DNA of 49,661 bases from a bacterium. GTDB lineage: Bacteria > Patescibacteriota > Minisyncoccia > UBA6257 > Colwellbacteraceae. Shown piece by piece: positions 1 through 26,154 of the stretch. The notes beneath the pieces are model-generated. The model saw nothing but the letters and a program-made list of their open reading frames with translations. It was not told the DNA's origin and did not search any database. The first letter of the stretch is position 1. Each line of letters starts with the position of its first letter. The stretch lies in assembly GCA_021787205.1 (NCBI GenBank), contig JAJYME010000005.1, forward strand, positions 1 to 49,661, in the 5' to 3' direction. The position numbers were made by a program, and so were the translations under genes.

Positions 1-1117
1 TTATATTATCGAAAGTGGAGTTATTGGCATTGCATAGAATAAGAGAGGAATACTCTTTGTTAGAAACAGCAACAGTGGAGTTAAAAAACGCTATTTCCTT
101 ATCGCCAGTTCCAGTCGTGTTGGATATCTGATTTGAACATGTAGAACCGTCATATACCCCTTCAACCTTGAAATCAATATCGGTATTATCCTTGGTTACG
201 TTATAGTCAAAATTATTTTCGGTCGAGCCAGAACTCATCTCGATTCCAGATCCTCCGTTAAGAACGGTTGTGTTTGCGGTGATTACATTACCACTATCAA
301 AAGTCAAAAAGATTCCGGAATAAGAATTATGATTAGAAGAGTTGGCAGTTATTTGATTTCCAGAGGAATGCTGCATCCATATCCCATAACTGGAGTCAGT
401 AACCGTATTGCTTGTCATAATTCCGTTGGTAATTCCATGAAACATCATGCCAAAACTGGCATTGGTTATTGTTGTATTTTTCACAATAATACCATTTTTA
501 TCCTCGGCATATATCCCAATATTACTTCTGGTGGGATTTATAGTGTGATAATTGCCATCAAGAGTTATATTATTTGAATCAATCTGGATAGTCTCATCGA
601 CGTCTTGGGTCAGGGTGCAAGTCAAAGTATTCTGATCCCAAGTTCCAAATTGAGAACAAGCTCCCCCATCGGTAGAATTAATATATTTGGTGGATTTATG
701 GGTTTTGATAAAGATAAGATGATTTTCTTTGATATCTTGCTTGAATTCTATCTCTCCATTACTGTTTGATATTATTTCCTCCAAATTGTGGAAATTATCA
801 GCATATTTATAATATTTTGTGTTAGGCTTTAGATTTTGGACTAAAAGCTTGGTATTCCCCGAATCTTTGTTTATATTAATCAGAATTACTTCCGGTATGG
901 AAATAATATCGAGATCGGTTGGTTTGCTGGAAATTACCTTGATGGGTAAGCCATCGACATCCATCGCTTCAAAAATAGTGTCGTTGGCGGTTTTCTTTGT
1001 CCAACCGGCAGGATTCATCATTAATTCCTTGTTCTGAGGATTTATTTTGGCTTGCGATAAGGATGGAATAAGGATGGCCGCTAGAGATAGTGTTAGTAGT
1101 AGTTTGTTTAGTTTCAT
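1..1117 (-). CDS. Exported protein with right-handed parallel beta-helix (NosD/CASH-like) repeats; 3' end runs out of the window
   Basis: Not in the ORF track; manually translated from ATG at 1117: MKLNKLLLTLSLAAILIPSLSQA (signal peptide) ... TIQIDSNNITLDGNYHTI ... GIYAEDKNGIIVKNTTITNASFGMMFHGITNGIMTSNTVTDSSYGIWMQHSSGNQITAN. The frame is open to position 1 and AT-rich. Confidence 0.8.
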   Translation of the reverse strand, partial: MKLNKLLLTLSLAAILIPSLSQAKINPQNKELMMNPAGWTKKTANDTIFEAMDVDGLPIKVISSKPTDLDIISIPEVILININKDSGNTKLLVQNLKPNTKYYKYADNFHNLEEIISNSNGEIEFKQDIKENHLIFIKTHKSTKYINSTDGGACSQFGTWDQNTLTCTLTQDVDETIQIDSNNITLDGNYHTINPTRSNIGIYAEDKNGIIVKNTTITNASFGMMFHGITNGIMTSNTVTDSSYGIWMQHSSGNQITANSSNHNSYSGIFLTFDSGNVITANTTVLNGGSGIEMSSGSTENNFDYNVTKDNTDIDFKVEGVYDGSTCSNQISNTTGTGDKEIAFFNSTVAVSNKEYSSLILCNANNSTFDNI

Positions 1118-1269: not shown

Positions 1270-1323
1270 ATTTTACCAAATAAGATGTTAAGAAAAGGTA
1301 AAAAATTGTTAAGGAATTGTTAA
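1270..1323 (-). promoter_or_regulatory. Direct-repeat box array 1 (TTAACA-N5 type) with extended -10
   Basis: Minus strand TTAACA-ATTCC-TTAACA-ATTT-TTTACC-TTTTC-TTAACA, then 10 nt ending TGG, then TAAAAT. Confidence 0.8.
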
Positions 1324-3868: not shown

Positions 3869-4687
3869 TTATTTATTTTCAGTCTTGATAAGCGATAAGA
3901 CGCCGAACAAGAAAAGAACCGCTGAGCCGATGATGACAATGGTGGCGCCGGTCGGAAGATTAAGGATATAGGAAATAAGAAGACCGGAGACGACGATCAT
4001 TTCCGAAGAGATGACCGAGGCCCAGACGACACCCCGGAAAGACTTGGCGATAAATCTGGAGATGGAAACCGGGATAATCATCATCGAGGAAACAAGCATG
4101 ATTCCCAAAACCTTGATGCCAAGGACGACAGTCACCGCGGTGATAATGTAAAACAAGGGTTTCAAGACATCTACCCTCATGCCGCTAGTCTTAGCCAGGT
4201 CCTCGTCCAAAGACATCACTGTGAGCTCCCTCTTAAAAAGAAGCAAGAAGACCAGGAGAACTAGAGCGATACCGCTGATCAGATAAACTTCGCTCTGCCT
4301 GACAGAAAGAATGTTGCCAAATAAGAAACTCATCAACTCCGGCTTATAGCCCTTCGAGAAGCCGATAAAAAGAGCGCCTAGCGCCATACCGAAGGAGAAG
4401 ATAATCCCGATAGCCGAATCTCCCGAAATCCCCTTCTTTTCCAAGACATAAATGACGAGGGAAAAGATGATGGCGGAGACGATGGCGGTAAGCAAAGGAC
4501 TGGTGCCCAAAAGCAATCCGAGGGCGATACCCGAGAGGCTGGCGTGAGCGATTCCCTCACCGAAGAAAGACATCCTCTTAAGGGTGATAAAGACGCCTAG
4601 ATAGCTTATCAAGCCGCCCAAGATCAGGCCGATGACAAGAGCCCGGCTCATAAAGGCATATTGAAAGATGTTCAAAAAATTATCCAT
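3869..4687 (-). CDS. znuB: Zn/Mn ABC transporter permease
   Basis: RMSFFGEGIAHASLSG motif, multiple TM helices, operon context. Confidence 0.88.
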   Translation of the reverse strand: MDNFLNIFQYAFMSRALVIGLILGGLISYLGVFITLKRMSFFGEGIAHASLSGIALGLLLGTSPLLTAIVSAIIFSLVIYVLEKKGISGDSAIGIIFSFGMALGALFIGFSKGYKPELMSFLFGNILSVRQSEVYLISGIALVLLVFLLLFKRELTVMSLDEDLAKTSGMRVDVLKPLFYIITAVTVVLGIKVLGIMLVSSMMIIPVSISRFIAKSFRGVVWASVISSEMIVVSGLLISYILNLPTGATIVIIGSAVLFLFGVLSLIKTENK

Positions 4688-5414
4688 GGTTGTGATGTAT
4701 TGAATGCGCGTGACCGTGGCGATTGGTTTCTTTCAGATGACTTGAGGTATAGATGTCTTCCATTTTTTCAGAATTCAGCAATTCCTCGGGACTGCCGATG
4801 GAGATTATCTCCTTATTGATAGCGACGACCTTATCGGCAAAGCGATAGACCAGATCTATCTCGTGAGAGACGAAGACGATGCTTGTCGCATATTCGTCCC
4901 TGACCTTATTCACAAGCTCGGCAAATTCCTTGACCCCTTTAGGATCGATTCCGGTAGTAGCCTCGTCAAGCAGGATGAGGCAAGGATGCAAAATGACCGC
5001 CTTGGCGAGCATTACCTTCTGCAATTCGCCACCAGAGAGATCGCCGATCCTTTTGTCCAACAATCCGGAGATATCGATAACTGACAAAACACCTTCGATT
5101 TCCTTATCGCTGACGGCAGTCGTCATCTTTATAAATTCACGGACCAGAAGCGGAAAATTCTTGTCGAAGACAAACCGCTGGGGAACGTAGCCGATGTGCT
5201 TAACCCGAGAATGATTCTTATTCCCGCAGACGGAAATGTCTCCTTCATAAGGGATGAGGTCCAGGACGGCTTTCAAAGTCGTCGTCTTCCCGGCGCCGTT
5301 CGGCCCGATAAGAGCTACGATCTCCTTCGGCATGACATCGAAAGAAACGTCCTTCACGAGCTCGACGCCCTTGACCGCGATATTCAGATTTTTTACTGAT
5401 AAAATAGGATTCAT
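4680..5414 (-). CDS. znuC: Zn/Mn ABC transporter ATP-binding protein
   Basis: GPNGAGKT, IGYVPQ, LSGGE, LLDEA; His-rich tail. Confidence 0.88.
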   Translation of the reverse strand: MNPILSVKNLNIAVKGVELVKDVSFDVMPKEIVALIGPNGAGKTTTLKAVLDLIPYEGDISVCGNKNHSRVKHIGYVPQRFVFDKNFPLLVREFIKMTTAVSDKEIEGVLSVIDISGLLDKRIGDLSGGELQKVMLAKAVILHPCLILLDEATTGIDPKGVKEFAELVNKVRDEYATSIVFVSHEIDLVYRFADKVVAINKEIISIGSPEELLNSEKMEDIYTSSHLKETNRHGHAHSIHHNHG

Positions 5415-9992: not shown

Positions 9993-10235
9993 TTATTCCT
10001 TGCGCCTTCCGGCTTCAGCCTCTTCATCGGCCTTTCGATCCAAGTGATATGGCTCTTCAGGCACTACTGCGGAAGCGACAATATAAGCAAGCGCAGGTAA
10101 AAAGAACATTCCTATAAAAAGGAAAAAGATGTAAAAAACCCTGAGGATGGTGGGGTCGATATCAAGATATTCCCCGATACCTCCGATCAGACCGGTGATG
10201 ACTTTGTTATTTCGGCTTCGATAAAGCTTTTTCAT
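9993..10235 (-). CDS. pspC: PspC domain protein
   Basis: KKLYRSRNNKVITGLIGGIGEYLDIDPTILR...YIVASAVVPEEP. Confidence 0.9.
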   Translation of the reverse strand: MKKLYRSRNNKVITGLIGGIGEYLDIDPTILRVFYIFFLFIGMFFLPALAYIVASAVVPEEPYHLDRKADEEAEAGRRKE

Positions 10236-10241
10236 ATGATG

Positions 10242-10296
10242 ATTATATCACAAAAGATGTTAAGAAAAGGTAAAAAAATTGTTAAGGAATTGTTAA
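10242..10296 (-). promoter_or_regulatory. Direct-repeat box array 2 with extended -10; leaderless pspC promoter
   Basis: Hexamers at plus-strand 10291, 10280, 10269, 10258 (11-bp period), 10 nt ending TGA, TATAAT, 6 nt, ATG. Confidence 0.85.
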
Positions 10297-18896: not shown

Positions 18897-20672
18897 TTAG
18901 GCAGAAAAGCCTTCGGATTGGATCTCATAGAGGCTCTTATACAAGCCGCCAAACTCCATCAATTCTTTATGAGTCCCCTGCTCGACGATACCGCCATCCT
19001 TGATAGCAATGATGCGATCCATCTTTTTGATGGTCGAAAGCCTATGGGCGATGATGATAACCGTCTTCCTTTTCATCAGATTCTCCAAGGCTTCCTGGAT
19101 AAGGACCTCGGACTCGGAATCCAGGGCGGAAGTCGCCTCATCCAAAATAAGAATCGGCGCATCTTTCAAGATAGCGCGGGCGATCGCAACCCTTTGCCTT
19201 TCGCCACCAGAGAGCTTGACTCCCCTTTCACCCACCTTTGTATCATAGCCTTCGGTAAAGTTAGCGATGAACTCATGGCAACGAGCCAACTTGGACGCTT
19301 CGATGACCTGCTCGTCAGTCGCCTCCGGCATCCCGTAGCGGATATTGTCCATCAAGCTTCTATGAAAGAGCGATGGATCTTGAGGCACATAAGCGACATT
19401 CTTCCATAAGCTCTCCTGGGTCACCTGGCTGATGTCCTGATTATCAATATCAATCTCGCCGCTTGTGACATCAAACGATCTTAAGAGAAGTTTGACGATG
19501 GTCGACTTCCCGGCGCCAGAGGGGCCGATAAAAGCGACTCTTTCTTTGGGTCTTATTTCAAAGGATAGATTGCTGATGACATCGGCGCCATTCTTGTATT
19601 TGAAACCGACATTCTTAAAAGTGATAGTTCCGTGATCGACGACAAGGTCTTTGGCTTCCTCGGCATCTTTGATTTCATGAGGAGTCAAAAGAATCTCAGT
19701 CATCTCGTTGGCTTCGGCAATGTTCTCATAATAACTCCTGATGACGCGATAAAAGCTCCAAATCCGATGAAAGATCAAGCTGATATAAGATTGAAGCAAG
19801 ACGAAACTGCCGATTGAGAAATTGCCAGCAGCATAAAGCCTGACCGCATAGACCAAAAGCCCGACCTCGAGAACGGTAAACAAGAGAGCTTGGATGCCGT
19901 TAAAAGCGGTACCCAATCCCCAGGAGGTTTTCCTCAATCTTCTGACAGCCTCATTCATTTTGGCGAAGAGACCTGTCTCCCTTTTATAACCGTTGAAGAG
20001 TTTTATGGTCGCATAGTTCGATACCGTATCAGCCAAGACGCCGCTTGTCTCTGACTCCGTCTCAGATAACTCGAGATCGTACTTCAGCTTGAATCTCGAA
20101 AAGGCGATACTGATGAACATATAAAAAACGATCCAGACAAGGATGACGACCGAGATGACGTAGCTCACATCCCAAAGGACGATAACGGCGGAGATGATAG
20201 TGACGATCATCGGGACAACCTCATAAATCAGATTATCCATAATCGCCTCAAACGCCCTCGAGAAACTCCTGACCCTCTTCACTAAAGCGCCGGAAAAATT
20301 GTCAGCAAAGAAACCGGAAGAGTGCTTGTGCAAATAAGCGAAGCACTTGTCCATCAGCTTCGACATTGAAAAAGATTCGAAATGGACGATGGAGAAATCA
20401 GACACTCTCCAGAGCAGCCAGCTTATCCCCTTCAGGACGGCGATGACGACAATGATTCCTAAAGCCGCAGAAACCGAAAAACCGCCCGAGAGCGAATCCA
20501 GGAACTTTTTCATATAAATAGGGGTAATGATATCCAGAATCGAGATAGTCACGATCGAGGCGATCATTAAGAAAAACAAACCCTTAAGCTCCATTGCCTG
20601 TTTCCAAAAAATCGCCAGGGTCTGCTTTGAGTAAGCCTTCCTATTCTTTTTTTCTGCTTTTTTATTCGACAT
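18897..20672 (-). CDS. ABC exporter, fused permease/ATPase (MsbA/Atm1-like)
   Basis: TM domain plus GPSGAGKST, LSGGERQRVAIARA, ILDEATSALD, IAHRLST. Start moved to ATG at 20672. Confidence 0.92.
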   Translation of the reverse strand: MSNKKAEKKNRKAYSKQTLAIFWKQAMELKGLFFLMIASIVTISILDIITPIYMKKFLDSLSGGFSVSAALGIIVVIAVLKGISWLLWRVSDFSIVHFESFSMSKLMDKCFAYLHKHSSGFFADNFSGALVKRVRSFSRAFEAIMDNLIYEVVPMIVTIISAVIVLWDVSYVISVVILVWIVFYMFISIAFSRFKLKYDLELSETESETSGVLADTVSNYATIKLFNGYKRETGLFAKMNEAVRRLRKTSWGLGTAFNGIQALLFTVLEVGLLVYAVRLYAAGNFSIGSFVLLQSYISLIFHRIWSFYRVIRSYYENIAEANEMTEILLTPHEIKDAEEAKDLVVDHGTITFKNVGFKYKNGADVISNLSFEIRPKERVAFIGPSGAGKSTIVKLLLRSFDVTSGEIDIDNQDISQVTQESLWKNVAYVPQDPSLFHRSLMDNIRYGMPEATDEQVIEASKLARCHEFIANFTEGYDTKVGERGVKLSGGERQRVAIARAILKDAPILILDEATSALDSESEVLIQEALENLMKRKTVIIIAHRLSTIKKMDRIIAIKDGGIVEQGTHKELMEFGGLYKSLYEIQSEGFSA

Positions 20673-20745
20673 ATCAAAGAATATGAGTTTATCACACGGG
20701 AGAATAAAAACAACCCCGCAGAAGCGGGATTGCGTATAAAAACAG

Positions 20746-21519
20746 TTATTTAATGCTAAAGACAGCACGGACCGTAAGCATTATTTCCTTATCCTCAGTC
20801 GAGGTATCGTAAGTGCCGTAATCTGAAATATCGACGGAATTAGGAGCCAAAACCTGAGTGACGCCGATTGATGAGCTTCTCAGCGATCCGACTTTGCTAT
20901 TGTCGGAGCCGGCAATCATCTCAGCTCTCTTCCTGGCATCCTTGACCGCCTCTCCGATAAGTTCGATTCTCTTTTCAGAAAGAGGGGTGTAATAATATTC
21001 CGGCGAACCGGGGTTAACAAGGATTCCGGATTCGAATAAGGGCTTGGTGTTATTGGCAACCGCCTTTATCTTGGCTATATCGTTCGATTTGACCTCGACG
21101 CTCTGATTAAAGGTATATCTGTCGGGCCCCTTCGAGCCGGATTTCTCATATTCATAGATCTTACCGGAATTCATAGTTGAGACCGAATATTCGCTCTCAG
21201 AGATTCCGTTATCCTTAAGGAAATCCTTAATGGTATTGAGGTCGGACTCCATCTCCCGAACTCCGGACTTCATATCGTCCTCGGTGACAGTCCTTGAGAA
21301 ATTGATCCTCCATTTAGCCAGATCAGACTTGACCTCGACTTTGGCTGAACCAGTAGTGGTCAGAGTGTTATCAAGAGCTTTTATCTTATAGGCGGTAACG
21401 GAAACGATGGTGAAAGCGATGACAATAAAGACCCCCAGAGCTCCTGCGGCGGCCGCATAAGGATTCTCGCGAATCCCCTTGTTTTCATCAATTATTTTTT
21501 TAACATTTGCCATCATCAT
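20746..21519 (-). CDS. SIMPL (DUF541) domain protein
   Basis: TTTGSAKVEVKSDLAKW, EAVKDARKRAE, DYGTYDTST. Confidence 0.85.
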   Translation of the reverse strand: MMMANVKKIIDENKGIRENPYAAAAGALGVFIVIAFTIVSVTAYKIKALDNTLTTTGSAKVEVKSDLAKWRINFSRTVTEDDMKSGVREMESDLNTIKDFLKDNGISESEYSVSTMNSGKIYEYEKSGSKGPDRYTFNQSVEVKSNDIAKIKAVANNTKPLFESGILVNPGSPEYYYTPLSEKRIELIGEAVKDARKRAEMIAGSDNSKVGSLRSSSIGVTQVLAPNSVDISDYGTYDTSTEDKEIMLTVRAVFSIK

Positions 21520-21555
21520 GGTATTAATTATACTCACTCAAAAAAAATTAACAAA

Positions 21556-21726
21556 TTATTTTGTGTCAAAATGCTCTTTGGTAATGACACCATCAGCACC
21601 GTTAACCATCATGAGCTTATGACACTTGCGACATTTCACCTCTACCTTTCCGGTTATTAACTCACCCTTGAAGAGAAGCTTTCCGCATTCGCAGCGAAAC
21701 TCTTGAAGATTAGATTGGGTTTCCAT
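21556..21726 (-). CDS. Mu Com-like zinc-ribbon protein (56 aa), not in the ORF track
   Basis: METQSNLQEFRCECGKLLFKGELITGKVEVKCRKCHKLMMVNGADGVITKEHFDTK*; RCxCxKLL...EVKCxxC pattern. Confidence 0.85.
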   Translation of the reverse strand: METQSNLQEFRCECGKLLFKGELITGKVEVKCRKCHKLMMVNGADGVITKEHFDTK

Positions 21727-21762: not shown

Positions 21763-21828
21763 ATTATAGAAAATAAGATGTTAAGCCACGGTAAAAAAAA
21801 TGTTAAGGAATTGTTAAGGAATTGTTAA
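21763..21828 (-). promoter_or_regulatory. Direct-repeat box array 3 with -10
   Basis: Five hexamers at plus-strand 21823, 21812, 21801, 21790, 21779 (exact 11-bp period), 10 nt, TATAAT. Confidence 0.85.
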
Positions 21829-21855
21829 AAAACCCCGCAAAAGCGGGTTTTTTTT
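21829..21855 (-). terminator. Terminator after the kinase/terpene-enzyme operon
   Basis: CCCGC-AAAA-GCGGG hairpin flanked by A and T tracts. Confidence 0.7.
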
Positions 21856-21878: not shown

Positions 21879-23771
21879 TTATCCACAGGTTTTTGTGAAT
21901 TGGAGATAAGTTTTTCGATCAGCTAAAGTTCTTTCAGTTGCTAACCTTACCGGGGCAATTATTCTCGAAAGAATGACGCTCACATCCCCAAGGTGAGAGA
22001 GGTTTCCAGCCGCGGCCACCGCAGACGCCGAGTACTCCAGGGCCAACTTGCAGACAAGAGGAAGAACATCATTCCAAAAAATCTTATTGATTTCTACTTC
22101 ATCCTTAAGATCGATACCTCTCTTGGCGATAGCGTCCGTCAGAAGAGCGACGACGGGAGAAATCCTCCCCTTGGCTAAATCCTCGAAACAGTCTCTCAAG
22201 TCATCATTCAACTGCCTCGCAATGATATAATTTTTAAAGAAGCCGAGCACCGACGCGATCTCGACCGAGCCGACGGCATATCCAAGTTTCGAGAGGAGAA
22301 TAGTCGGCCCTAGGCTGTGACCCATCGACTTATCAGCGATGATGTCGAGCCGGCTGTATATTTTTCCATACCTCTCCTCCAAGGGACTGTTTTCAATACG
22401 GGCAGCTTCGATCTCCCAAAGGTTTCCGGCGTCCATTTTGTTAAGAATCGAAAGCGACAACCCGAAAAAATCGTCAGAAGATGAAGACTTCAATTCCGAG
22501 ACGACCTTTCTCAAACAATAATTAGCCAGGGGAAGATCGGCCGGATTCCCCTCACCATCCAAGAAACCGTCATAAATCGAATAAGCAATCCAACCACAAA
22601 GACTGACTACTCCTAAAGAAACAAGAAATTCGTCAGAGATCCCCTTCCGACTGTCAGAAGGCAAGCCGGAGGCGAGGAGAGAAGCGACCAGAATGATCTC
22701 CTGTTTTTCCTTCCCGGATGACACCGCTTCAAACCATCTGCTAAACGATTTCCTTAACCCGCCGCAATCGTCAAGATCAGCCTCGATATCCGATTTTACC
22801 TTCGAGAGAATACCGACTAGATAAGAATCATCCCGGGAAACCTCAGCCCCCGAACTTCCAGCGCGATTAATGACCTCGAGCGCCAAGGCTAGCTCAAGGT
22901 CGTAGGAACCGGAATAACTTTTGACACCATTCCTATTGGTCTCGACTACGAAAGGATAAATATTTCCGGACTCGGAATCTAACCAGTTGGCGATCTTTTC
23001 CACGTAGAGCGAGAGGTTGGAGGAATCGACACCACAATTCATCAACCCAAGGACGGAGAATGAGAGATCAAGCGGATTAGCCGCTTTGTCGATATTTTTT
23101 TCAAACCAGATTTTCAAATCCCCGATCTTCTCACCCCGATAGGCCCGGGAAACGAAATAAGCCACAGAAAATTCGGTTTCGTAGTAACGGGAAGAGAAGC
23201 TTCCCATCTCAATTGCCGACTCCATAAAACCGACAAGATTTGGCAGCTCAGCTCCAACTTTTGAAAGGGCGTAGGCGATATTGGCGTTAACCGCCAAGTC
23301 TACATCTTTCCACTTCTCAGCATCCGGGAGGGTGATCCAAGTATAATAAGGACCACCCTCAAAAGCCTCCTCAGAACTAAGGATCATGATGAGATAAGCC
23401 AGAGCCTCACCATCATTTTCGCCATTCAACAAATCCAACGAAGCAAAAGCCATCGAAGTCGAATCCAGGTCGTCCGGATAAGGGACGCTTGCCGCCGCCT
23501 CGGAGTTTCGACGCCAGTAATTGAAACATAAGCGGTCATTTCCCTGGGAGACCAAAAAAGATGTAAGCCGTTCGATAACCGGTTTGATTTCGGGATAAGA
23601 CTTAAGAGATTTGAAGGAATCAAGAATAAAAAAATTGGGAAAGACGGCGGAACTCGGTTTCTTATCGGCAAAATCCGGGTCGAAGGAGGTGAAAACTCGG
23701 AAGCCCTCCCTGATGTCGATCTTGGAAAGACGTGACAATTTAGTTTTTATTATCCGAGAATAATCAATCAT
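21879..23771 (-). CDS. Two-domain isoprenoid enzyme: class II terpene-cyclase-like domain fused to a class I isoprenoid-synthase/ComQ-like prenyltransferase domain
   Basis: N-half: FNYW...YPDDLDSTS, GGPYYTW, DVDLAVNANI, SRYY. C-half: IYDGFLDGE, DKSMGH, RQLNDDLRDCFEDLAKG. The ATG at 23771 overlaps the kinase stop. Confidence 0.72.
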   Translation of the reverse strand: MIDYSRIIKTKLSRLSKIDIREGFRVFTSFDPDFADKKPSSAVFPNFFILDSFKSLKSYPEIKPVIERLTSFLVSQGNDRLCFNYWRRNSEAAASVPYPDDLDSTSMAFASLDLLNGENDGEALAYLIMILSSEEAFEGGPYYTWITLPDAEKWKDVDLAVNANIAYALSKVGAELPNLVGFMESAIEMGSFSSRYYETEFSVAYFVSRAYRGEKIGDLKIWFEKNIDKAANPLDLSFSVLGLMNCGVDSSNLSLYVEKIANWLDSESGNIYPFVVETNRNGVKSYSGSYDLELALALEVINRAGSSGAEVSRDDSYLVGILSKVKSDIEADLDDCGGLRKSFSRWFEAVSSGKEKQEIILVASLLASGLPSDSRKGISDEFLVSLGVVSLCGWIAYSIYDGFLDGEGNPADLPLANYCLRKVVSELKSSSSDDFFGLSLSILNKMDAGNLWEIEAARIENSPLEERYGKIYSRLDIIADKSMGHSLGPTILLSKLGYAVGSVEIASVLGFFKNYIIARQLNDDLRDCFEDLAKGRISPVVALLTDAIAKRGIDLKDEVEINKIFWNDVLPLVCKLALEYSASAVAAAGNLSHLGDVSVILSRIIAPVRLATERTLADRKTYLQFTKTCG

Positions 23772-25170
23772 CTTTTTTTTCAAATAAAGGAATCTGGACA
23801 AGAAAGACCGTCCCTATCTCTTGATCGCTGTCGAAAGCCACGATCCCATTGAAGTCCTCGTAGACCGAACTGCGGACGATGCCTAAGCCGAGACCGACCC
23901 CCTCCTTGCCGGTGGAAAAGAAGTTTTTGAAAATCCTTCTTTTGTTTTCCTCTTTGATGCCGCAACCAAAATCAAAGATTTCAAGGATATAATAACCCCC
24001 CTTCGAAAAGCTCTTGATAACAATTCTCCTATTGTCCTCCCTCTCAACCGTTTCATAAGCGTTGATACCGTTCGAGACAAGATTAGAGACGATATGAGAG
24101 AACTTAACGACTGACCCGCAGATCCTTTTCTCATCCCCGTCCGAGAGAAATTCAAAAACGATATTCCCCTTCTTAGCCTTGTAAGTCATAAAACCGAGAA
24201 CATCCCGTATCTCGTCGTCCGGGTTGAAGACAACCTTTTCCGCCCCCTTCAGTCTTCTCTTGTTTGAGTCCAGAAACTTTTCAAAATCACTCTTGGCTTC
24301 GTGAAACTCCTCCAAATACTCCTTGGCTCTGGTCACCTCTTCGCTTCCGCTCATCTTCTCGTCCATCGTCAACATCAAGACGCCGAGATGATTAGCGAGA
24401 TCGTGGAAGATTCCCGAAGAAAGCTTTCCGAACTCAATAAATCGGGAAGCTTGATTCATCTGATCCCGGTGTTGTTTCTCCAGCTCCTCAGTCCTTTCTT
24501 TAACCTTTATTTCCAAACTGTCCTTTTCGACTCTCAGATCGGACTCGGATTTTTTCAGGCGGCCGAAAGCCTTTTTTATCTCATGGTTGTAAAGATAAGA
24601 GATGATAAAAACAAAGATAATCGAAAAGGAGTAGACAAAGACGTCGACTAACTCGGTCGGCAACATCTTCCAAGATGTCGACGGCACGACGAGCCCTATC
24701 TCCTCGAGATAGAATACGCCGCTGATTGAAAAAAGAGATGAGACCAGCATAAAGACAGTAAACAGGTTATCGGTGAGAATAGAAGCGATGAGGATGGCAA
24801 TGATGTGAAGCAATAAAGCTTGGGGTACCGCGACTCCCCACGAAAGCATCGAGACAACGGCAAAGAACAAATAGAACAAGGACAGGAACTTTGAGGCGAC
24901 AAGTTGGTTTCCAGACATCGCTAAGACCCCCAGGAGGATTAGAAACAGCAAGACATTGACCGCTGTCTGAAGATCAGTGACTTCATTCGACCTGAAAGCA
25001 ACCAGACACATGGCGATCACGGCGACGAGAACCAGCCCGGTAGATAGTCCGAGCAAGATCTTAAGGATCGAGTATTTATGAATATCGTAAGACTCCTCCC
25101 TGTCGAAGTCGAGGATTCGCTTCAAAAGAGAAACAATCCTGTCTTTGAAAAAATCAGCTGTCAATCTCAT
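23764..25170 (-). CDS. Membrane sensor histidine kinase (about 6 TM, HisKA + HATPase_c)
   Basis: GIFHDLAN H-box, NLVSNGINA N-box, DFGCGI, FFST, GVGLGL. Start moved to ATG at 25170 because the longer ORF runs through a terminator and the peptide gene. Confidence 0.92.
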   Translation of the reverse strand: MRLTADFFKDRIVSLLKRILDFDREESYDIHKYSILKILLGLSTGLVLVAVIAMCLVAFRSNEVTDLQTAVNVLLFLILLGVLAMSGNQLVASKFLSLFYLFFAVVSMLSWGVAVPQALLLHIIAILIASILTDNLFTVFMLVSSLFSISGVFYLEEIGLVVPSTSWKMLPTELVDVFVYSFSIIFVFIISYLYNHEIKKAFGRLKKSESDLRVEKDSLEIKVKERTEELEKQHRDQMNQASRFIEFGKLSSGIFHDLANHLGVLMLTMDEKMSGSEEVTRAKEYLEEFHEAKSDFEKFLDSNKRRLKGAEKVVFNPDDEIRDVLGFMTYKAKKGNIVFEFLSDGDEKRICGSVVKFSHIVSNLVSNGINAYETVEREDNRRIVIKSFSKGGYYILEIFDFGCGIKEENKRRIFKNFFSTGKEGVGLGLGIVRSSVYEDFNGIVAFDSDQEIGTVFLVQIPLFEKKDD

Positions 25171-25194: not shown

Positions 25195-25220
25195 AAAAAG
25201 ACCCGCTCCAAGGAGCGGGT
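25195..25220 (-). terminator. Intrinsic terminator of the small peptide gene
   Basis: Minus strand ACCCGCTCC-TT-GGAGCGGGT-CTTTTT, 8 nt after the peptide stop. Confidence 0.8.
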
Positions 25221-25228
25221 GAAAAAAC

Positions 25229-25342
25229 TTACAGCCAAGGATCACCCAAGACTCCGACAGTCGTCAGGACAAAAGCGCTTGAAAGCAGAGAATTGCGGAG
25301 ATTCTTGTCGGTCAGCATCTTCTGGAGAAGTTCTTTTTTCAT
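25229..25342 (-). CDS. 37-aa peptide, candidate ComX-like pheromone precursor; not in the ORF track
   Basis: MKKELLQKMLTDKNLRNSLLSSAFVLTTVGVLGDPWL*; has its own promoter (TGA-TACAAT), A-rich start context and terminator. The single Trp is penultimate. Confidence 0.75.
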   Translation of the reverse strand: MKKELLQKMLTDKNLRNSLLSSAFVLTTVGVLGDPWL

Positions 25343-25382: not shown

Positions 25383-25448
25383 ATTGTATCACGCCGACCC
25401 CCTTAAAAAAGTTAAGGAATTGTTAAGGAATTGTTAAGGAATTGTTAA
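25383..25448 (-). promoter_or_regulatory. Direct-repeat box array 4 with extended -10 (peptide gene promoter)
   Basis: (TTAACAATTCC)x3 TTAACT, 21 nt ending TGA, TACAAT; same register as arrays 1-3. Confidence 0.85.
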
Positions 25449-25473: not shown

Positions 25474-26154
25474 TTAAGCCAACTCCTCCCAGTCGCCATC
25501 AAAACGATACCCCGTCCCCGGAATAGCTTTGATAGCGCCTTCGCAGAACCTTATTTTTTTCCTGAGCAGGGAGATGTAGGTTTCAACCACCCTTGAAAAA
25601 GGATCCATATCGCCATCCCAGAGATGATCCATTATGTCGGCCCGGGACAGGACTTCGCCCTCCTTTTGGGCAAATAGCTTAAGAAGCATATATTCCTTTC
25701 TTGAAAGGTTGACCTCCTTGCCAGCCTCCAGGACCCGGCGGCGGACAAGATCGATTTCCAAAACGCCATATTTAAGCACCGTACTCAGATCATGATTAGA
25801 GCGGCGAAGGACCGCCTTGACTCTCGCCACGACCTCACTCATCGAAAATGGCTTCATGATATAGTCATCGGCGCCCATATCAAGGAAGAAAGTCCTCTCA
25901 GCCGGATCGCCCAAGGCGGAAACGATAATGATTCTCGTCTGGGTATTCTTTTTTCTTATGTTTGAACACACGACGGACCCTTCTTTTTTAGGCAGGACCC
26001 GGTCAAGGAGAATGACGTCATAATTATTGGCTAGGGCAAGGCGCTCTCCGCACTCCCCATCGGCAGCGACATCTACAACGAAGTTCTCAGATTCAAGACC
26101 TGTCTTGAGAAGTCTGGCGATTTTCGCGTCGTCTTCTACAACTAAAACTCTCAT
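25474..26154 (-). CDS. OmpR/PhoB-family response regulator
   Basis: VLVVEDD, ILLDRVLP, GADDYIMKPF; winged helix LSRKEY...VVETYISLLRKKI...GTGYRF. Confidence 0.95.
   Translation of the reverse strand: MRVLVVEDDAKIARLLKTGLESENFVVDVAADGECGERLALANNYDVILLDRVLPKKEGSVVCSNIRKKNTQTRIIIVSALGDPAERTFFLDMGADDYIMKPFSMSEVVARVKAVLRRSNHDLSTVLKYGVLEIDLVRRRVLEAGKEVNLSRKEYMLLKLFAQKEGEVLSRADIMDHLWDGDMDPFSRVVETYISLLRKKIRFCEGAIKAIPGTGYRFDGDWEELA

Follow-up and report, generated by a model that had tools for sequence, protein, structure and literature searches.

A four-gene cassette in a Patescibacteria genome

The stretch of DNA analysed here (hereinafter designated the window) comprises 49,661 nt, positions 1 to 49,661 of the forward strand of contig JAJYME010000005.1 (GenBank assembly GCA_021787205.1), from a bacterium of the Colwellbacteraceae in the Patescibacteriota. 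Its minus strand carries four adjacent genes in the order regulator, peptide, kinase, enzyme, the last of which encodes a 630-residue protein with a cyclase-like N-terminal domain (N-domain) and a prenyltransferase-like C-terminal domain (C-domain). The four genes are as follows.

25474 to 26154, minus strand: OmpR-type response regulator, first gene of the cassette (Response_reg and Trans_reg_C, Pfam E 3.3e-25 and 3.5e-20)
25229 to 25342, minus strand: 37-residue precursor-like peptide, stop included, between response regulator and histidine kinase
23764 to 25170, minus strand: histidine kinase with about six transmembrane helices, short loops and a HATPase_c domain (Pfam HATPase_c 3.9e-16, HATPase_c_5 5.1e-06)
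21879 to 23771, minus strand: two-domain enzyme of 630 residues, ATG to stop included (AlphaFold model pLDDT 92.8)

The enzyme gene begins with an ATG inside the end of the preceding kinase gene, an overlap of 8 nt that takes in the kinase stop (ATGATTGA), and an alternative TTG start at 23801 lies within the kinase gene. The kinase itself probably starts at the Met codon at 25170, as the listed GTG at 25245 overlaps both the peptide gene and the hairpin that follows it; its hydropathy segments fall within residues 63–217.

A single-sequence search with the enzyme gave no Pfam and no NCBIfam match, and phmmer against PDB sequences returned chance matches only (E > 0.5). A word-indexed search yielded 67 full-length relatives, of which those bearing names are Patescibacteria proteins; a second such search, made with the alignment, returned 23 proteins, none of them new. 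An exhaustive profile search of 1.84 billion representatives recovered 3,477 proteins at E <= 0.001 and, at E <= 1e-30, 1,517 clusters (50% identity), and the best 150 relatives are all 573–677 residues long. Similar-length proteins of Bacteroidota and Chloroflexota were listed as look-alikes and serve as leads only.

Conservation in the enzyme was read from an alignment of 51 of the 67 word-indexed relatives (alignment A1; omitted were P0011, 14, 21, 26, 30, 31, 33, 36, 37, 39, 50, 54, 61, 62, 64 and 67, several as partial or of low coverage and others solely to limit alignment size). Related loci were taken from GTDB contigs at one genome per species, where 250 stretches encode a relative; 80 were kept for locus counts, labelled with many lineages of the candidate phyla radiation, and 44 of the 76 complete loci, together with the window, make up a further alignment (A2). 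The distribution is patchy: of 201 genomes sampled from the phylum, 9 encode a member of the enzyme family, and 6 of these 9 come from one bacterial family.

The motifs quoted for the enzyme in an earlier note on this DNA are all present (YPDDLDSTS from residue 98, DVDLAVNANI from 156, SRYY from 194, YDGFLD from 400, DKS from 480, QLNDDLRD from 520 and DLAKG from 531), and in the 51-sequence alignment they prove to be its most conserved parts. The family consensus reads PYPDDLD(D/S)T, GGPYxTW, DIDLAVN, SPYY, YDDFLDGEG and ARQLNDDxxDWxxD.

The N-terminal domain resembles a class II terpene cyclase

The N-domain and its two catalytic motifs are located as follows.

22845 to 23771, minus strand: N-domain, residues 1–309, single-domain (TC-beta) class II terpene cyclase by profile and structure comparison
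23454 to 23480, minus strand: YPDDLDSTS, residues 98–106, class II protonation motif, with D101 and D103 in the positions of AsDMS D331 and D333
23181 to 23192, minus strand: SRYY, residues 194–197; Y197 aligns with AsDMS Y427 and Y196 with Y426

Compared with the PDB, the family profile matched the cyclase domain of the drimenol synthase AsDMS over enzyme residues 28–309 (E 6.7e-16), and the N-domain model matched the same domain in Foldseek (E 1.3e-09). Structure comparison with VIA aligned 281 residues with the AsDMS structures (9mlo/9m7f/9mhs) at Z 30.7 and a root-mean-square deviation of 2.4 Å, the shared architecture being the alpha/alpha-barrel TC-beta fold; other cyclases scored lower (SHC-like 24.4, MstE 23.7, SsDMS 23.6). 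The N-half had been likened earlier to the class II cyclase of HAD-fused drimenol synthases, a likeness that both the fold and the catalytic residues uphold. No HAD phosphatase family is found in the enzyme by Pfam; the partner domain has the fold of a trans-isoprenyl diphosphate synthase (trans-IDS).

In AsDMS, mutation of D331, of the general acid D333 or of its partner Y427 abolishes activity (PMC12365925). An alignment by hidden Markov model (HMM) equates these residues with D101, D103 and Y197 of the enzyme, whose motif reads DLDST. All are well conserved among the 51 members (D101 in 49, D103 in 47, Y197 in 47), as is Y196 (46 of 51). The same study lists R378, R380, R513, Y373 and Y426 as diphosphate-binding residues (PMC12365925), among which only Y426 is matched here, by Y196. 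R378 corresponds to W154, R380 to D156 and R513 to a non-basic position, an alignment that is uncertain near a 6-residue gap; R425 corresponds to R195, which is Arg in 6 of 51 members. The absence of the diphosphate-binding arginines fits a substrate head group other than diphosphate. Judged by its residues, the N-domain has the appearance of an active cyclase of the protonation type, and a diphosphate head group on its substrate would not be required.

Four of the 51 members (P0060, P0063, P0065 and P0066) lack D103, which is replaced by Tyr, Leu or Phe; this subclade has no PYPDD stretch and keeps the prenyltransferase motifs, and its members may prenylate without cyclising.

The C-terminal domain has a prenyltransferase fold

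The C-domain and its two Asp-rich motifs are located as follows.

21882 to 22826, minus strand: C-domain, residues 316–630, trans-IDS-like alpha domain (domain model pLDDT 94)
22557 to 22574, minus strand: YDGFLD, residues 400–405, first Asp-rich motif (FARM); D401 and D405 invariant, G402 in place of the usual Asp
22179 to 22214, minus strand: QLNDDLRDCFED, residues 520–531, Gln followed by the second Asp-rich motif; Q520, D523, D527 and D531 in 51 of 51 members

The C-domain profile returned chance matches only against PDB sequences, so the fold had to come from structure comparison. Folded alone, the domain showed the all-alpha trans-IDS fold in Foldseek and VIA comparisons, matching trans-isoprenyl diphosphate synthases at Z 21–23.7 in the latter, with the geranylgeranyl diphosphate (GGPP) synthase 5jfq highest (Z 23.7). 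Next came the Trp farnesyltransferase Ord1 (9v4g, Z 20.3), fungal bifunctional synthases through their prenyltransferase domains (about Z 17–20; PvCPS 19.9), MoeN5 (16.9) and class I cyclases (13–14.7). The class I isoprenoid-synthase fold foreseen in the earlier note for the C-half is therefore present, specifically in its trans-IDS, or prenyltransferase, branch, and both halves of the protein adopt a terpene cyclase or isoprenoid-synthase fold. By sequence the C-domain is no canonical synthase: PF00348, the family of chain-elongating synthases, gave no match for this protein and matched only 1 of the 51 members, weakly (E 0.0096). PF19086 likewise matched 1 of 51.

The first Asp-rich motif had been called degenerate, which is correct for this copy and not for the family: residue 402 is Asp in 45 of 51 members and Gly in 2, so that the consensus is a canonical DDxxD. 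D401 and D405 are kept in all 51 sequences, as are Q520 and the three Asp residues listed above. Q520 stands directly before this second motif, a feature described as common to the Trp-prenylating trans-IDS-like enzymes ComQ, ChrPC, PalQ and Ord1 in a 2026 review (PMC13290415).

Two other assignments of the C-domain were weighed against this one. A likeness of the second motif to squalene/phytoene synthases found no support in structure (HpnC Z 13.6 versus 23.7 for trans-IDS) or in a PF00494 match, and a class I cyclase that ionises an already cyclised diphosphate was set aside because the C-domain groups structurally with prenyltransferases.

A conserved Trp peptide is predicted to bind the enzyme

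The 37-residue peptide, present in a single copy in the genome, has a leader of the form LTDKxxRN, a sole Trp (W36) within a PW motif and the C-terminus GDPWL. Comparable small open reading frames (ORFs) occupy the same gap between regulator and kinase in other loci. Among 21,089 six-frame segments, an HMM of the peptide family matched exactly one segment per locus in 70 of the 80 loci and in the window. The 10 loci that yielded no match are all cut off upstream (at 2365 nt or less), and the peptide is present in every one of the 70 related loci that extend far enough upstream; 12 of the matches came from loci outside the HMM training set. All matches lie upstream of the kinase on the enzyme's strand except in locus L047, where the peptide-like ORF (4355–4738, minus strand) is on the opposite strand and interrupted by masked bases, and no kinase match was obtained there.

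In an alignment of 53 peptides (A3; 52 of the 70 peptide-bearing loci plus the window), L10, R16 and W36 are invariant. Of the 53 peptides, 52 contain exactly one Trp and 44 the PW motif, and 1–6 residues come after the Trp; the Arg-to-Trp spacing is 17–22 residues and the overall length 33–39.

Modelling of the enzyme with the peptide (ESMFold2, alignments A1 and A3) gave ipSAE values of 0.79, 0.79 and 0.77 in three runs, against 0.00 for the best of three controls. The 0.79 mark is reached by 58 of 80 solved complexes and by 2 of 110 mismatched pairs, an approximate calibration given that our own alignments were used. Contact agreement between runs was at least 69% and the partner pLDDT 59–61. 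The confident interface joins peptide residues 1–20 to enzyme residues 115–140, 169–177 and 618–629, the first of these segments being the following.

23352 to 23429, minus strand: predicted leader-docking surface in the complex model, residues 115–140, including the invariant L131, E135, G139 and G140

The complex model supports, at the level of a prediction, binding of the leader to the enzyme.

Conservation of the cassette

In 74 of the 80 loci the enzyme gene is immediately preceded by the kinase gene on its own strand, and a relative of the regulator lies further upstream on that strand in 56 (the regulator cluster is found in 64 of 81); loci in which kinase or regulator is not in place are mostly cut short. 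Clustering of ORFs of at least 70 residues revealed a single further conserved neighbour, a canonical polyprenyl synthase (PF00348) in 18 of 81 loci, placed either directly after the enzyme or between regulator and peptide. Pfam was run on 4 of these 18 synthases and confirmed all four (PF00348, E 1e-47 to 1e-59).

Isoprenoid supply in carrier genomes

The earlier note had remarked that the window holds no genes for prenyl-diphosphate supply. This holds and extends to the whole 616-kb genome (96% complete), which gave no match to PF00348, PF01255 (UppS), PF00288 (GHMP kinases) or PF02401 (IspH), with all controls matched. BacA had no match in this genome either, and MraY is present. Either the donor comes from outside or the cassette is idle in this genome. 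With MraY present and UppS, BacA, polyprenyl synthase, GHMP kinases and IspH all unmatched, cell-wall synthesis would need a lipid carrier that is either scavenged or produced by as yet unknown enzymes.

Most carriers do have a synthase, sometimes inside the cassette: among the 16 other carrier genomes, PF00348 was matched in 13, UppS in 14 and a GHMP kinase in 4. PF00348 was matched in 82 of 201 background genomes, against 13 of the 16 other carriers and none in this genome; 6 of the carriers belong to one family, so this comparison is confounded and the apparent enrichment is not interpretable.

As there is no detectable route here to isopentenyl diphosphate, to farnesyl diphosphate (FPP) or GGPP, or to undecaprenyl diphosphate, a signal made by the cassette could depend on prenyl diphosphate of the host cell. 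A terpene–peptide signal made only in this way would report host contact or metabolic state rather than the bacterium's own density, a host-gated ComX-type circuit in an episymbiont. This extension of the earlier suggestion of a host-derived substrate fits this genome, but a canonical polyprenyl synthase lies inside 18 of 81 cassettes, and we regard it as a doubtful possibility.

Repeats, hairpins and neighbouring genes

Four non-coding elements accompany the cassette.

25410 to 25448, minus strand: three tandem 11-bp TTAACAATTCC units upstream of the peptide gene, candidate response-regulator site
21801 to 21828, minus strand: two and a half further TTAACAATTCC copies upstream of a Zn-ribbon ORF, possible second target of the regulator
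25201 to 25220, minus strand: terminator-like hairpin with T-run, immediately downstream of the peptide stop codon (8 base pairs, including 6 GC)
21834 to 21847, minus strand: terminator-like hairpin after the enzyme gene

A search with the repeat pattern found 7 matches in the window, where 0 were expected. Genome-wide there were 9, distributed over 6 sites; for the genome search the reversed-pattern control is uninformative, as the reversed pattern falls in the same repeat array. The same repeat, as TTAACAATTCCTTAACA, occurs at four more genome sites (window 1307–1323 and 10280–10296; contig 2 44084–44100 and 63679–63695). One such site precedes the gene of a protein that looks secreted, having a signal peptide and repeats of beta-helix-like type (2 to 1117, minus strand), another an 80-residue PspC-like membrane protein (9993 to 10235, minus strand), and one adjoins the MraY locus on contig 2. 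The repeat sites may jointly define a small regulon under control of the regulator in the cassette.

The Zn-ribbon ORF (56 residues, window 21556–21726, minus strand) comes directly after the terminator of the enzyme gene. Its resemblance to Mu Com is weak (Pfam E 0.0022, short of the cut-off), and tblastn found a relative in only 6 of the 80 related loci. After it, on the same strand, come a SIMPL/DUF541 protein and an ABC exporter (ABC_membrane and ABC_tran; window 18897–21537, minus strand). The exporter is a possible route of export for the peptide; a relative lies within the flanks of 11 of the 80 loci, and it is not a conserved part of the cassette. Elsewhere, a RadC-like JAB-domain protein occurs in loci L006, L049, L053, L057, L060 and L063, in several cases (L053, L057 and L060) immediately behind the enzyme; for two of the six a Pfam run gave E 4e-37 and 2.9e-35. 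At 1452–2777 of the window (minus strand) lies a 441-residue protein with long N-terminal FGDR(K/R)-type Gly/Arg-rich repeats and a C-terminal part that is methyltransferase-like in appearance.

Proposed mechanism

We consider that the enzyme is probably a bifunctional peptide maturase, which prenylates the single Trp of the 37-residue peptide and then cyclises the attached chain, and that with the kinase and regulator it makes up a ComX-like signalling cassette. In the model that we propose, the conserved leader helix of the peptide would dock on the N-domain and the C-terminal helix of the enzyme, as the complex prediction indicates. The C-domain would bind a C15–C20 prenyl diphosphate through its Mg-binding Asp-rich motifs (D401/D405) and transfer the prenyl group to W36, the indole being positioned by Q520 and D523, by analogy with ComQ, ChrPC, PalQ and Ord1. 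The N-domain would then protonate the terminal double bond of the peptide-bound chain through D103, aided by D101 and Y197, as homology to AsDMS and MstE suggests, and would fold the chain into a polycyclic terpene. The lipidated peptide may be the ligand of the co-encoded six-helix kinase, and the OmpR-type regulator may act on the 11-bp repeats before the peptide operon and a few other genes. We infer this regulatory loop because the repeats precede both the peptide gene and the Zn-ribbon ORF.

The prenyl group is likely transferred first, and the chain cyclised once it is bound to the peptide. This order is drawn from the published description of the fused enzymes ChrPC and NctPC, from the missing diphosphate-binding arginines of the N-domain and from the chemistry of a cyclised C15 diphosphate: once fully cyclised, such a diphosphate is no longer allylic. 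The reverse sequence, in which FPP or GGPP is cyclised and the product is then transferred to the peptide Trp, had been suggested before. Its central idea, a terpene joined to the Trp of a peptide, gains from the Trp peptide found in all 70 loci that reach far enough upstream, the predicted binding and the published precedent, whereas its order of steps is probably to be reversed.

Relation to known systems

The closest precedents in enzyme architecture are NctPC and ChrPC, fused prenyltransferase–cyclase peptide maturases (Hubrich et al., Chem 2024), as presented in the review PMC13290415. According to that review, the P domain of ChrPC is trans-IDS-like and prenylates an internal Trp with C10–C20 donors, after which an MstE-like C domain cyclises the prenyl group. 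The enzyme studied here likewise unites a prenyltransferase domain, trans-IDS-like as in ChrPC, with a monodomain class II cyclase in one polypeptide, the cyclase here being N-terminal. The proposed target would correspond too: in those enzymes it is an internal Trp of a ribosomal peptide, and the attached chain is then cyclised. The enzyme differs from them in that its cyclase is closer to AsDMS than to MstE (Z 30.7 versus 23.7), its precursors form a new family of 33–39 residues, it has a kinase and regulator of its own, and it occurs in Patescibacteria.

In gene content the cassette recalls Bacillus ComQXPA (ComQ isoprenyl transferase, ComX pre-peptide, ComP kinase, ComA regulator), with four adjacent same-strand genes in the same roles, a trans-IDS-fold enzyme, a small pre-peptide with Trp near its C-terminus and a multi-helix membrane kinase. 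In contrast to ComQXPA, the genes run from regulator through peptide and kinase to enzyme, the enzyme has an additional class II cyclase domain and a complete second Asp-rich motif, and the regulator is OmpR-type. ComA belongs to another regulator family. ComQ is a single domain of the PF00348 type, whereas the fusion enzyme has no PF00348 match. A 2014 census recorded comQXPA-like loci only in Firmicutes (PMC4008528), and a 2026 preprint adds a ComQ–ComX pair in Chloroflexi (10.64898/2026.08.29.745113).

The cyclase domain of AsDMS (PDB 9mhs, 9m7d; Pfam AstC-like_C, PF28380) is the closest solved homologue of the cyclase and shares its DxD(S/T)T motif and Asp/Asp/Tyr set. Where AsDMS has a HAD phosphatase as partner, the present enzyme has a prenyltransferase-fold alpha domain; R378 and R380 are not kept, and the substrate is probably a prenylated peptide rather than FPP. 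Ord1, PalQ and StheQ share the C-domain fold (Ord1 Z 20.3), the Gln before the second Asp-rich motif and, by our reading of the cassette, the Trp acceptor. These are single-domain enzymes, unlike the fusion here, and the second motif of StheQ is a metal-free pseudo-motif, unlike the complete motif here. The fungal bifunctional copalyl diphosphate synthase PvCPS also fuses a prenyltransferase-fold alpha domain to a class II cyclase. PvCPS, however, elongates chains and uses a beta-gamma didomain to cyclise free GGPP, whereas the present enzyme has only one beta domain, carries no PF00348 signature and is accompanied by a cognate peptide.

The fused prenyltransferase–cyclase is therefore a known enzyme type and is not categorically new. 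What appears to be undescribed is a cassette with the four ComQXPA roles, the precursor family, the spread in Patescibacteria and the occurrence in a genome that lacks isoprenoid supply. Our search of the accessible literature found no account of this system in Patescibacteria or the candidate phyla radiation, although the primary ChrPC paper could mention the clade or the kinase link.

Alternative explanations

Several observations weigh against a peptide maturase. The complex model confidently places only the leader, with W36 in neither active site, and ORF clustering of the 81 loci revealed no conserved protease or exporter. The second Asp-rich motif is complete and invariant, as in chain-elongating synthases, and in the ComQ homologue StheQ the corresponding motif is a metal-free pseudo-motif (10.64898/2026.08.29.745113). 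The likeness to ChrPC is drawn from its published description. Near-perfect three-unit repeats (period 9–12) precede the peptide gene in only 1 of 68 other loci, so the test for an operator across loci was negative and that reading draws on this genome alone, and the hairpin right behind the peptide gene is one that an attenuator might equally have. The genome has no match for any supply gene searched; with no visible donor and with G402, shared by only 2 of 51 members, this copy could be impaired.

Three other readings were weighed. The enzyme could be a synthase of a free terpenoid, its C-domain making or ionising a prenyl diphosphate and its N-domain cyclising it, as in PvCPS or abietadiene synthase, with the kinase sensing the terpenoid or a membrane change and the peptide serving as regulator or chaperone. 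Both domains do keep complete catalytic motifs, including the second Asp-rich motif typical of chain elongation, the prenyltransferase domain of PvCPS is among the structural matches, and a kinase sensor almost wholly embedded in the membrane would suit a lipid signal. Yet 18 of 81 cassettes contain a canonical synthase of their own and 13 of the 16 other carriers have one elsewhere in the genome, which indicates that the fused domain is not needed for elongation; PF00348 does not recognise that domain; the AsDMS diphosphate-binding arginines are not kept; and the invariant single Trp and the predicted docking of the leader on invariant enzyme residues are left unexplained. We therefore think a free terpenoid unlikely. 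That the small ORF is an attenuator leader peptide or a small membrane regulator of the kinase seems very unlikely to us. The cassette would then be an envelope or lipid-carrier stress system in which the enzyme uses polyprenyl lipids obtained by scavenging, undecaprenyl (di)phosphate for example. In its favour are the hairpin immediately behind the peptide stop, with a stable fold (z < -2) in the following 70 nt in 30 of 69 loci, the repeat site before the PspC-like gene, the hydrophobic middle of this copy's peptide and the presence of MraY with no UppS or BacA match, which implies that polyprenyl lipids must come from outside. A hydrophobic stretch is found in only 13 of the 53 peptides, however, which means that the family as a whole is not marked by a membrane helix. 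An attenuator would not be expected to have a conserved leader, a fixed Arg-to-Trp spacing or predicted binding to the enzyme, and a terminator after the precursor gene is also usual in operons for peptide natural products.

The third reading concerns this copy only: in a 616-kb genome with no match for an isoprenyl diphosphate synthase, UppS, GHMP kinase or IspH, and with a weakened first Asp-rich motif of which G402 is the sign, the enzyme may be a relic that no longer works although the family does. Against decay stand the four intact cassette genes, the retention of every other conserved residue, the overlap of kinase and enzyme genes as if translationally coupled, the near-perfect repeat sites and the finding that 3 of the 16 other carrier genomes likewise have no PF00348 match; a relic is accordingly quite improbable. 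Peptide maturation followed by signalling through the adjacent kinase remains the reading that we favour.

Discussion

Patescibacteria have tiny genomes with few recognisable signalling or natural-product systems. The enzyme family is large and uncharacterised (1,517 clusters), and neither Pfam nor NCBIfam has a model for it. If the enzyme is a peptide maturase, these bacteria would possess a self-contained four-gene peptide-pheromone cassette with a cyclised-terpene signal. ComQXPA-like systems, recorded in the sources consulted from Firmicutes and, as a ComQ–ComX pair, from Chloroflexi, would extend to the candidate phyla radiation, and fused prenyltransferase–cyclase maturases would gain a signalling role. 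The cassette is small enough for direct heterologous expression. Carriers that lack every known isoprenoid supply gene, including the present genome, raise the question of where episymbionts obtain their isoprenoids.

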